Assembly (NCBI RefSeq): GCF_020991375.1
Contig: NZ_JAJLQZ010000013.1
Span: forward strand, 22,608-46,607
Direction: 5' to 3'
DNA: 24,000 nucleotides
From: Glycomyces amatae
Lineage (GTDB): Bacteria > Actinomycetota > Actinomycetes > Mycobacteriales > Micromonosporaceae
Positions 7,914 through 9,978 of this stretch are shown here, piece after piece. The notes beneath the pieces are model-generated. The model searched no databases. It worked only from the letters and a program-made list of their open reading frames with translations, and was not told the DNA's origin. Within the stretch, counting starts at the first letter, position 1. Each line of letters opens with the position of its first letter. A program made the translations under genes and the position numbers.

Positions 7914-8000
7914 CGGCACGCCGTTCCGGCAGGGCGCCCCATTTGCATCCTCAATGTACCTTGAGCATCGTTCCCGCCAATCGATGTGAACGGAGGCCGA

Positions 8001-8402
8001 ATGTTCGGAGAGGAAGTAATCGCCCAGCAGCTCGCCGACGCCCGCGCGGCGCTCAGCAGTGCGGTCAACACCCCTGGCGCCCACCGGATCGACCCGATCA
8101 CCGTCGACGGAGCCGATGGTCTCCTCCAGCTGATGTTGAGCGCCGAGGGCCGCGTGGAGACCATCGAGTACGACCCCCGTGTCATGAACTTCGGCTCCGA
8201 GAACCTCTTCGCCGAGATCAAGCGGATGGTCAACACCGCGCTCGACCAGCGAGCCGAAGCCCTCGGCACCGATGAGCCCACGCCGGACCTGAACGCCATC
8301 AACGAATCGGTCGCCGAGATCCAGGACCGCTCCCTGCGACAGTTCCAGGCGATGGGGGCCTCCATCAGCGAGACCATGGCGCGCCTGCAAGGAGGACGCT
8401 GA
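8001..8402 (+). CDS. YbaB/EbfC-fold protein associated with a type VII secretion-style effector locus
   Basis: ...ITVDGADGLLQLMLSAEGRVETIEYDPRVMNFGSENLFAEIKRMVNTALDQ matches the YbaB core pattern. GGAGG lies at 7992-7996 before ATG 8001 (alternative GTG 7986). Confidence 0.7.
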   Translation: MFGEEVIAQQLADARAALSSAVNTPGAHRIDPITVDGADGLLQLMLSAEGRVETIEYDPRVMNFGSENLFAEIKRMVNTALDQRAEALGTDEPTPDLNAINESVAEIQDRSLRQFQAMGASISETMARLQGGR

Positions 8403-8403
8403 C

Positions 8404-8730
8404 ATGGCCGATCTGGACCTCGACCTCGAGTCCTTTCGCCGTGCCGCCGATGAGTTCGACGCCGCCAAGGAAGAGGTGCAGGCGCTCCTCGACCAGTTCA
8501 CCGGCACTCTGGCGCAGTTCGCCGACGCCTTCGGCGGTGACGAGATCGGCATGCTCGTCGGCATGGCGCACGACGCCTGCACCGAAGTCCTGAACGAGTG
8601 CTTCACGACCAACATCGAGGAGATCGCCGACTACGCCGAGGCCATCCGCGACATGGCGGACGGCCACGAAGCCGCCGACAACGAGAACGCGCAGCTCTTC
8701 AATCAGCTTCTGACCGAACTCGGCGGTTGA
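8404..8730 (+). CDS. Small helical EspC/WXG100-like type VII secretion helper or target protein
   Basis: 108-aa acidic helical protein (...FRRAADEFDAAKEEVQALLDQFTGTLAQFADAFGGDEIGMLVG...). AAGGAGGA at 8389-8396. ATG 8404 lies 1 nt after the YbaB-like stop. Confidence 0.65.
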   Translation: MADLDLDLESFRRAADEFDAAKEEVQALLDQFTGTLAQFADAFGGDEIGMLVGMAHDACTEVLNECFTTNIEEIADYAEAIRDMADGHEAADNENAQLFNQLLTELGG

Positions 8731-8763
8731 CCCGCCGCGCCCCGTCACCAGGAGGTGCGCCCC

Positions 8764-9258
8764 ATGGGGATGCAGATACCCGGCGAACTCGCAGGTCTGC
8801 TGAGCATGCTCGGCTACGACTGGCCCGAATCCGACGAGGAGTCGATCTTCAACCTCGCCGGCGAGTGGACCGGGATGGCCTCTCAGATCGGCGACAAGGT
8901 CGAACGGCTCAACAGCGCCGCGGCCACGCTGCTGGAGAACAACACCGGCGCCGACATCGAGGCGTTCAGGGAGGAGTACGAGGATGCGGAGTCGGCCGCC
9001 CGCAACCTCGCAGGGGCCGCCGACCCGGCGGGCATCATCAACATCGGGTTGACGATCGCCGCGGGGATCGTCCTCGCACTCAAAGTCCAGGTGATCGTCC
9101 AGCTCATGATGCTGGCGTTCCAGATCGCCCAGGCGATCGCCACGGCAGCGGTCACCTTCGGAGCGTCCCTCGTCCAAATCCCGATCTTCAAGATGATCAC
9201 CGGCATGATCATCGATCAGCTGATCGGCATGGCCCTGGACATGGTGCTCAATGGCTAG
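8764..9258 (+). CDS. WXG100-like N-terminal domain plus hydrophobic helical region: the carrier part of an actinobacterial polymorphic toxin, ending without a toxin domain
   Basis: Motif ...LGYDWPESDEESIFNLAGEWTGMA... (compare CpnT-type IWPNGD...AW), followed by the hydrophobic stretch GIINIGLTIAAGIVLALKVQVIVQLMMLAFQIAQAIATAAVTF.... GGAGG at 8751-8755 favours ATG 8764 over GTG 8755. TAG at 9256-9258. Confidence 0.75.
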   Translation: MGMQIPGELAGLLSMLGYDWPESDEESIFNLAGEWTGMASQIGDKVERLNSAAATLLENNTGADIEAFREEYEDAESAARNLAGAADPAGIINIGLTIAAGIVLALKVQVIVQLMMLAFQIAQAIATAAVTFGASLVQIPIFKMITGMIIDQLIGMALDMVLNG

Positions 9259-9682
9259 CAAAAGGCGACGGAACAACCCCGAGCTCCCCGAGGGCGGGGC
9301 CGAACTCATCAAGAAGCCCGTCCGCGGCCTGTTCAAGAACGGCAAGGGCGGCCTCAAGAAAGGCGGCGACGGCGCCGACGCAAGTGCTCCGCGCACCGGT
9401 GTCAAAGGTCTGCTCAAGGACGCTGGCCTTCCCACCTCCGGTCGGATACGATACGTTCCGCCCAAGGGGGTCACGCCCACCACCGGACTTCCGAAGGGCC
9501 CGAACGGCGGGTACTTCGACCGTCATGGGAACGAGTGGGTCAAGGGCCCTTCGCGCACCAAGGGCGAGCCGTACGAATGGGATGTGCAGCTCAGCTCGAA
9601 GGGCCGGAACCAGATCGGCTGGACGACCCGGGACGGTTCGCATGCGAACGTGTCTCTGGGCGGCCACATAACCCATAAATGA
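9251..9682 (+). CDS. Polymorphic-toxin C-terminal module: Gly/Lys-rich linker plus a small toxin domain, possibly nuclease-like (exact family not assigned)
   Basis: ATG 9251 overlaps the carrier stop (AATGGCTAG). The linker MASKRRRNNPELPEGG...KNGKGGLKKGGDG is followed by ...GRIRYVPPKG...GGYFDRHGNEWVKGPSRTKGEPYEWDVQLS...GSHANVSLGGHITHK, which resembles C-terminal toxin cassettes. Followed by an ATGA-coupled small ORF. Confidence 0.7.
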   Translation: MASKRRRNNPELPEGGAELIKKPVRGLFKNGKGGLKKGGDGADASAPRTGVKGLLKDAGLPTSGRIRYVPPKGVTPTTGLPKGPNGGYFDRHGNEWVKGPSRTKGEPYEWDVQLSSKGRNQIGWTTRDGSHANVSLGGHITHK

Positions 9683-9978
9683 GGATGCTCAAGGTGGAAT
9701 TCTACGAAAAGGTCAAGGTCGGGCAGAACGCGTCGTTCGCCGAGTACGCCGGACGAGTCGGCGTCGTCGGCGGCATCAGCGACGGCGCCGACGGAGTGAC
9801 CTATTACGCGGTCAAGTTCGAGGACGACGACGTGGTGATGTTCCCCGGGGACCAGCTCGAGTCGCTCGGCGACAAGGCGTCCCCCGACGAGATGTTCCCG
9901 GGCGGGAGCGTCAAGGTGACCGTGGACGAGAAAGGCCACGCCGAGATCGTCGAGGACAACCCCCCTCAGCGGCCGTAG
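9679..9978 (+). CDS. Putative cognate immunity protein (small, acidic)
   Basis: ATGA start/stop overlap with the toxin ORF (9679-9682). 99 aa, MRMLKVEFYEKVKVGQNASFAEYAGRVGVVGGISDG...YYAVKFEDDDVVMFPGDQLESLG. Confidence 0.65.
   Translation: MRMLKVEFYEKVKVGQNASFAEYAGRVGVVGGISDGADGVTYYAVKFEDDDVVMFPGDQLESLGDKASPDEMFPGGSVKVTVDEKGHAEIVEDNPPQRP

Follow-up and report, generated by a model that had tools for sequence, protein, structure and literature searches.

According to Zhang et al. (2012, PMC3482391), actinobacterial toxins of the WXG type are made as one polypeptide that includes Gly-rich linkers. In a 24,000 nt stretch of high-GC actinobacterial DNA from Glycomyces amatae (the window), a WXG100-like protein, here termed the carrier, instead ends in a stop codon, and a toxin gene begins in another reading frame within its last codons. 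Is this junction damage to a gene that should be continuous, the trace of a recombination event, or a working arrangement of two genes? An earlier note on the window had proposed all three: assembly indels, out-of-frame joints left by swapping of C-terminal cassettes, and a genuine two-polypeptide system using termination and reinitiation. Our comparisons favour the last. With a probability of about 0.72, positions 7986-9978 hold a translationally coupled five-gene type VII polymorphic-toxin module, in which carrier and toxin are separate polypeptides and the toxin is docked non-covalently. The module and the other features discussed are collected in Table 1.

Table 1. Features of the five-gene module and of a deaminase gene used for comparison (window coordinates)
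Feature	Length	Positions	Strand	Remarks
Frameshifted DddA-like deaminase toxin gene		1439-2274	+	PF14428 on 3' half; not part of the module
YbaB-fold protein	138 aa	7986-8402	+	First module gene; assigned by a profile of 67 homologues and a fold match
Small acidic helical helper	108 aa	8404-8730	+	WXG100-like/DUF6317-like, below family cut-offs
Carrier	164 aa	8764-9258	+	WXG100_2 helical N-half and hydrophobic C-half; ends ..MVLNG, then stop; alternative GTG start at 8755
Moderate Shine-Dalgarno-like stretch		9231-9247	+	Inside the last carrier codons; anti-SD duplex -7.1 kcal/mol
Junction AATGGCTAG		9250-9258	+	Toxin ATG 9251-9253 overlaps carrier codons Asn-Gly-stop
Toxin gene	143 aa	9251-9682	+	Starts MASKRRR; Ntox17 domain at residues 55-142 (9413-9676)
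Conserved toxin N-segment	~36 aa	9251-9358	+	Basic stretch, then G-A-x-[ILV]-[ILV]..F-[RK]-x-x-K-G-G
Candidate immunity gene	99 aa	9679-9978	+	Assigned by position; ATGA overlap with toxin stop at 9679-9682

Read directly, the carrier frame at 9244-9258 is ...GTG CTC AAT GGC TAG, with its stop TAG at 9256-9258. The toxin frame, +1 relative to the carrier, is closed by TGA at 9221-9223 and restarts with ATG at 9251-9253; sequence and translations thus bear out every position that the earlier note had given for this junction. Carrier stop and toxin start overlap as ATGGCTAG. The overlap with the Ntox17 ORF amounts to 8 nt, and the toxin start lies 5 nt before the carrier stop.

The carrier is a member of WXG100_2 (PF25547; 48.9 bits against a Pfam cut-off of 27, residues 20-145) and scores below the cut-off of the WXG100 model TIGR03930 (19.8 bits vs 44.85). 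Its own start is preceded by a strong Shine-Dalgarno (SD) sequence, AGGAGG, at -13.9 kcal/mol. In an alignment of 85 carriers the mean column identity is 76%, with most of the invariant residues in the hydrophobic half. An AlphaFold2 model built from these 85 sequences is all-helical, with helices at 92-131 and 140-163, and is of low confidence (pLDDT 55.6, pTM 0.33). The carrier profile had no match among PDB sequences, and the LXG family is absent among Pfam matches at E <= 1 for both carrier and toxin. The segment Y72-E-D-A-E76 fits YxxxD/E, the export motif that type VII substrates have after their helical hairpin, but this position is W in >90% of relatives and lies inside the second helix of the low-confidence model rather than in a C-terminal tail. 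Two other assignments were tried and rejected. W35-T-G37 was considered as the WXG motif; a likelier site for the hairpin turn is N60-x-G62, after which come the nearly invariant A67 and the invariant F68. Ntox38 was considered for the hydrophobic half; it is an all-beta domain of 33-43 residues (Zhang et al. 2012).

To place the carrier among its relatives, its profile was searched against 1.84 billion cluster representatives, which gave 1404 matches, and the best 150 were classed by length. Among these best 150 of 1404, 58 are stand-alone (150-175 aa), 52 are fused (261-700 aa) and 19 are giant (>1000 aa). Fused relatives continue from the hydrophobic segment into a basic amphipathic helix and then the toxin, and the giants come from Streptomyces, where their annotation is that of toxin glutamine deamidase domain proteins. 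Among named family members, Micromonospora has both kinds, stand-alone and fused. The stand-alone carriers represent 58 clusters at 50% identity; in a tree on the N-terminal 170 residues, a single branch with 98% support parts all 58 stand-alone rows, together with one other, from every fused or giant row. On this tree 4 changes suffice to explain the stand-alone label, whereas shuffled labels need 44.8 on average. By this measure the stand-alone carriers constitute an old subfamily distinct from the fused proteins. The only long protein in their clade, the cluster representative P0071 (272 aa), is extended by a Pro/Gly/Thr/Glu-rich low-complexity tail of repeated GDAESGTPPATQ units with no toxin domain.

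The junction itself recurs with the subfamily. The source genome (6.17 Mb in 69 contigs) has 13 WXG100_2 matches in a Pfam profile search, and six of its loci share the same stop point: five close carrier paralogues, the window's included, and one distant one. At the paralogue loci a downstream +1 ORF has its ATG inside or at the last carrier codons (aATGggTAA, aATGgcTAG, cATGccTAA, gTGATGg), and each encodes a different toxin followed by a further small gene; the toxins at the five further loci of this genome are an EndoU, a weak match to YwqJ deaminases, and unknown types. A scan of relatives, with one genome per species, yielded 80 loci from Glycomyces, Micromonospora, Actinorhabdospora and one MAG, of which 79 were informative. 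All 79 have a carrier of 164-165 aa and a +1 ORF of at least 166 aa whose start precedes the carrier stop by 5 or 8 nt. Across all loci examined, the toxin start lies within the last carrier codons in 84/84, which is far from what chance would give; 78 loci have the 5-nt offset and six the 8-nt one. Further afield, NCBI gene calls in two Actinoplanes species give Ntox17 orthologues of 142-143 aa within the same five-gene module, again overlapping the carrier by 8 nt. Among 301 Actinomycetota genomes sampled evenly, three had matches at E <= 1e-10, the source genome included, a count that says little about distribution.

In the two Actinoplanes loci (L103:3001-3003 and L104:3001-3003, from A. 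teichomyceticus and A. palleronii), the toxin start is TTG, as cTTGgcTAG, and the carrier ends in ..VVLG.

These comparisons bear directly on the possibility that the split arose as an indel in assembly, or through a recent frameshift that made a pseudogene of a fused toxin gene, and that the downstream ORF goes untranslated. A frameshift of this kind does lie 7 kb away, in the deaminase gene. The N-domain of that deaminase occurs in 13 copies in the source genome, of which 11 are open for 242-307 aa and the window copy for only 181 aa; an intact paralogue (C34:382042) aligns with residues 1-86 to 1439-1696 and with residues 146-286 to 1837-2259, in different frames. Because the family is normally one ORF and the paralogue aligns in two frames, the deaminase break is, on this alignment, a lesion or a sequencing error. 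The earlier note had rightly seen that its halves are in different frames, with a shift opposite to that at the toxin junction, but had taken the two junctions to be of the same type, which fails because the deaminase family is normally fused. Copies of the deaminase-type helical N-domain lie at 1-789 and 1439-2569 of the window and at C14:57028, C34:382042 and C1:142445, among others; a further copy, at C17:42667-42972, has an in-frame TGA.

What separates the Ntox17 junction from such a lesion is recurrence. The architecture is identical at 84 loci, in ~45 independent assemblies and in the two Actinoplanes orthologues; the toxin ORFs are unbroken, have a high GC3 and can be assigned to recognisable families of toxins; and the stand-alone carriers form an old, diversified clade. 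Taken as a whole, the damage reading has a vanishingly small chance of being right. In its narrower form, an assembly indel, it is excluded for this junction by the same joint in ~45 independent assemblies and six paralogous loci of the source genome. The earlier note had named a split unique to this assembly, with an untranslated downstream ORF, as a circumstance that would refute its proposal; comparison of related loci gave the same split in 84/84.

Codon usage at the junction indicates what is being maintained there. The toxin starts with ATG in 82 loci and GTG in 2, and with TTG in both Actinoplanes loci. Changes of start codon accompany changes of carrier residue, GTG appearing with Asn -> Ser or Gly and TTG with the carrier end LG. 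The junction Asn codon is AAT in 80/80 loci; elsewhere in the same carriers, where GC3 is 0.94, Asn is encoded by AAC and AAT at 471 : 22 (22/493, 4.5% AAT). The carrier stop is TAG or TAA in 78/80 loci, compared with TGA as the stop of 58/79 toxin genes of the same loci and of 61% of the source genome's long ORFs. With TAG or TAA as the carrier stop, toxin residue 3 is Arg, Lys or Ser. The AAT codons and TAG/TAA stops go against the genomic codon bias, and this explains the locally A/T-richer sequence that had been pointed out at the Ntox17 junction.

A signal for initiation is also present. An SD-like stretch lies 4-20 nt upstream of the toxin ATG, and anti-SD pairing in the 17 nt 5' of the toxin start averages -7.2 kcal/mol over 84 loci, between the values at random internal positions (-3.3 kcal/mol) and at carrier starts (-9.5 kcal/mol). 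Judged from these patterns, it is the toxin start codon and the dual coding at the junction that are under selection, rather than a shift site, and the junction features together are those of a genuine start codon under translational coupling.

The same data weigh against a programmed +1 frameshift at GGC-TAG by which some rounds of translation would yield a carrier-toxin fusion. In its favour, the toxin frame lies +1 to that of the carrier, slippage at the stop would connect ...LNG with toxin residue 3, and an SD-like element does lie upstream. The spacing of that element, however, suits initiation at the ATG, whereas in prfB the SD is 3 nt away from the codon that shifts. The codon before the carrier stop takes eight forms (GGC, GGT, GGG, GGA, GCC, CGG and some longer ones), none of which could re-pair in +1, which agrees with the earlier view that GGC-TAG offers no slip-prone P-site, and the 84-locus set has neither a conserved slippery P-site codon nor an SD ~3 nt upstream of the shift codon, as a prfB-type site would. 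At 13 loci a toxin-frame TGA lies directly 5' of the ATG, so fusion would be possible there only through a shift on the last carrier codon. What is conserved is a start codon (ATG, GTG or TTG), for which fusion has no need. We consider such a frameshift very improbable. The two-polypeptide design with coupled translation, in comparison, gains strong support for the Ntox17 junction from the 84 loci and from the selection seen on start and neighbouring codons.

The toxin of the window is an Ntox17 protein (PF15524; 110.6 bits against a Pfam cut-off of 25, E 4.4e-32), and its translation has no hydrophobic stretch resembling a signal peptide. Among 85 toxin ORFs there are at least 10 unrelated C-terminal types, those recognised by Pfam being ADP-ribosyltransferases, YwqJ deaminases, Ntox15, Ntox17, GH-E and EndoU. 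Their N-termini tell a different story: the first 50 aa of 83/85 toxin ORFs form one similarity network that spans eight unrelated toxin types, with the pattern M-[AVGP]-[RK]-x-[RK]-T..P.R....G-A-[KR]-[IV]-[IVL]-S..L.N..F-R-T-x-K-G-G. Carriers that are 88-93% identical carry unrelated toxins, and toxin divergence begins only after FFRxGKG, so that the constant region comprises the YbaB-like gene, the helper, the carrier and ~36 toxin codons. Among the paralogues of the source genome, DNA identity falls at the junction and decays across the next ~100 nt. The polymorphic boundary, as located by these alignments, is ~36 codons inside the toxin gene and not at the junction, and the exchanged cassette is the toxin domain plus the immunity gene.

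The cassette-swapping reading is thereby divided. Exchange of cassettes is real, but the junction is not the out-of-frame joint that such exchange was supposed to have left, since it lies in a conserved region and the breakpoints fall ~36 codons into the toxin. From the comparative record, then, the Ntox17 junction is neither an indel nor a recombination scar.

An HMM of the 85 toxin N-segments, run against the fused relatives, gave a few matches in the expected place, residues ~163-200, with E 0.2-1, no better than a reversed control. By eye only, the Actinoplanes toxin N-segments (..EGILARAARRLLKRAEQAGRKRG..) resemble the corresponding part of fused relatives (..LLKRAKTLLRRFTRKGAKRGG..), and they look closer to the post-hydrophobic helix of those relatives than does the segment of Glycomyces and Micromonospora.

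The remaining genes complete a compact unit. The profile of the first, YbaB-like protein matches the solved structures 1j8b (E 3.1e-8) and 1pug (E 5.7e-8), which are also the top Foldseek matches of its AlphaFold2 model (pLDDT 74.5; probability 1.00, TM-score on target 0.60-0.71); 68/79 related loci have a homologue. The helper falls short of both PF06013 (E 6e-4, 20.5 bits vs a cut-off of 27.3) and TIGR03930 (E 2.5e-4, 21.2 vs 44.85), and a homologue stands directly upstream of the carrier in 79/79 loci. The candidate immunity protein matches no Pfam family and is 37% identical (E 5e-13) to the product of the gene downstream of the Actinoplanes Ntox17 orthologue. Successive genes of 7986-9978 are spaced by +1, +33, -8 and -4 nt, and the module is probably one translationally linked operon. 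It has the attributes of a polymorphic toxin, namely a constant trafficking part, many unrelated toxin domains and a downstream gene conserved with toxin type. The single polypeptide of Zhang et al. (2012) was not found at these loci, where the carrier has its stop in 84/84 and the toxin has its own start codon.

[quoted passage not shown] Core components score above their cut-offs (EccC 854.7 bits, EccB 168, EccD 195), all on contig C4, which also encodes mycosin-like proteases; these genes are away from the toxin modules and not adjacent to any. The ESX-type core cluster occupies C4:3518-16324, outside the window, and comprises EccC (open frame of 1352 aa), EccD, EccB and a mycosin-like protease. 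Close by, at C4:1936-2142, is a weak WXG100_2 match within a 433-aa Gly/Ser-rich protein. Helper and carrier are both below the curated WXG100 cut-offs, so the link of the module to type VII secretion rests on PF25547, on the fused relatives and on the T7SS elsewhere in the genome.

We propose the following working of the module. Ribosomes terminating on the carrier would restart 5 nt upstream on the toxin start, aided by the moderate SD-like element, and coupled translation would place roughly equimolar toxin beside freshly made carrier. The ~36 basic/amphipathic residues at the toxin N-terminus would dock on the carrier and so replace the covalent link of the fused relatives; the split may be a product of gene fission that has kept a former intramolecular contact. 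Carrier and helper would pair to form a helical secretion signal, the complex could be exported via the ESX-type system of contig C4, and the immunity protein would shield the producer of what may be a toxin for warfare between bacteria. The more general proposition, that stand-alone WXG100_2 carriers represent a 'cargo' mode of type VII secretion with a toxin that lacks a helical targeting domain docked through its ~36-residue N-segment on a carrier that the same mRNA encodes just ahead of it, we put at even odds.

Docking has a competitor in the carrier itself, which might not carry the toxin at all. Its hydrophobic half could act on membranes, either within the producer (as pore or release factor) or at the target (as membrane-active effector or translocator), and the toxin would leave or enter cells by that route without a stable complex. 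Conservation is highest in the hydrophobic C-half, where most of the invariant residues lie, the model (of low confidence) places the long helices 92-131 and 140-163 there, and precedent exists in the pore-forming Esx proteins that aid toxin secretion, EsxE/EsxF with CpnT in M. tuberculosis. Yet fused relatives join the same hydrophobic half covalently to toxins, so that in this family the two move together; both the coupled translation and the conservation of the toxin N-segment point to a physical partnership; and the module lacks the second immunity gene that a membrane-active carrier might call for. A carrier acting on membranes in place of carrying the toxin is therefore an unlikely explanation, though clearly the strongest of those that compete with non-covalent docking.

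Among the known systems nearest to the docked-toxin module are the fused actinobacterial WXG100_2 toxins of the 'T7SS (WXG)' class (PMC3482391), which share with it a homologous WXG100_2 domain and hydrophobic segment (E down to 1e-39), variable C-terminal toxins and downstream immunity genes. Examples are 'WXG100-like domain-containing proteins' of 330-430 aa in Micromonospora and the Streptomyces giants of 1300-1775 aa. They are made as one polypeptide, whereas here the chain stops after the hydrophobic segment, the toxin is a separate overlapping gene and the carriers form their own deep clade. In Mycobacterium abscessus, the toxin EatA depends on ESX-4 and is encoded with TapA1/TapA2 and EatI, and the same study reports that toxin payloads in the phylum are diverse (Benedict et al. 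2026, PMC13444075). That locus, too, encodes an actinobacterial T7SSa toxin, preceded by genes for small helical accessory proteins and followed by one for an inhibitor, but in EatA an N-terminal helical targeting domain belongs to the same chain as the enzyme, and a separate carrier or overlapping start is not described there (PMC13444075). The LXG toxins of Bacillota T7SSb, with Lap1/Lap2, are likewise polymorphic and have upstream helical partners and immunity genes; the small partners and the toxin's helical domain form a composite secretion signal (PMC9600955, PMC10801868). They belong to a different T7SS subtype, their toxin is covalently linked to its targeting domain, and no LXG domain was found here.

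Two broader parallels concern the layout rather than the proteins. Ordinary stop/start translational coupling uses overlaps such as ATGA, TGATG and longer ones; the 8-nt overlap here is standard and the toxin-immunity junction is an ATGA. What differs from ordinary operon overlaps is that this one cuts what sister lineages make as one protein and imposes dual-coding constraints on both genes. In type VI secretion, toxins are either bound non-covalently (cargo) or fused (specialised) to VgrG, PAAR or Hcp. The carrier family similarly has fused and separate-gene versions, with the short toxin segment as a would-be adaptor; machinery and proteins are unrelated, and the likeness is one of analogy only. 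The gene overlap itself is ordinary; the trans-loaded T7SS toxins that it implies are not. According to PMC10730906, all T7SS substrates so far described carry their own helical targeting domain. The literature that we searched by full text contained no description of a split carrier/toxin arrangement, an absence that is not proof of novelty.

If the docked-toxin reading is true, a large and old subfamily has its targeting domain as a separate protein, so that toxins would be loadable in trans, in parallel to type VI cargo effectors. It would make a third class of T7SS substrate, beside toxins with N-terminal and with reverse (C-terminal) helical domains, and a natural plug-in system for payload swapping. 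The module would also offer a handle on how T7SS recognise composite substrates, on the portion of a toxin that suffices for loading (the ~36-residue segment) and on recombinational exchange of payloads. For annotation, short 'WXG100-like' proteins and the small 'hypothetical proteins' downstream of them would be treated as joint toxin modules, and the junction should not be 'corrected' as a frameshift.

The source genome also has two distant WXG100_2 proteins, at C1:383590-383952 (-) and C1:270678-271031 (-), with open frames of 254 and 261 aa. Both end shortly after the hydrophobic segment, with a separate gene within a few bases, and the genes 3' of them encode a hydrophobic signal-like N-terminus and then a toxin-like part. 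These two loci may represent a second, independent arrangement with a separate payload.
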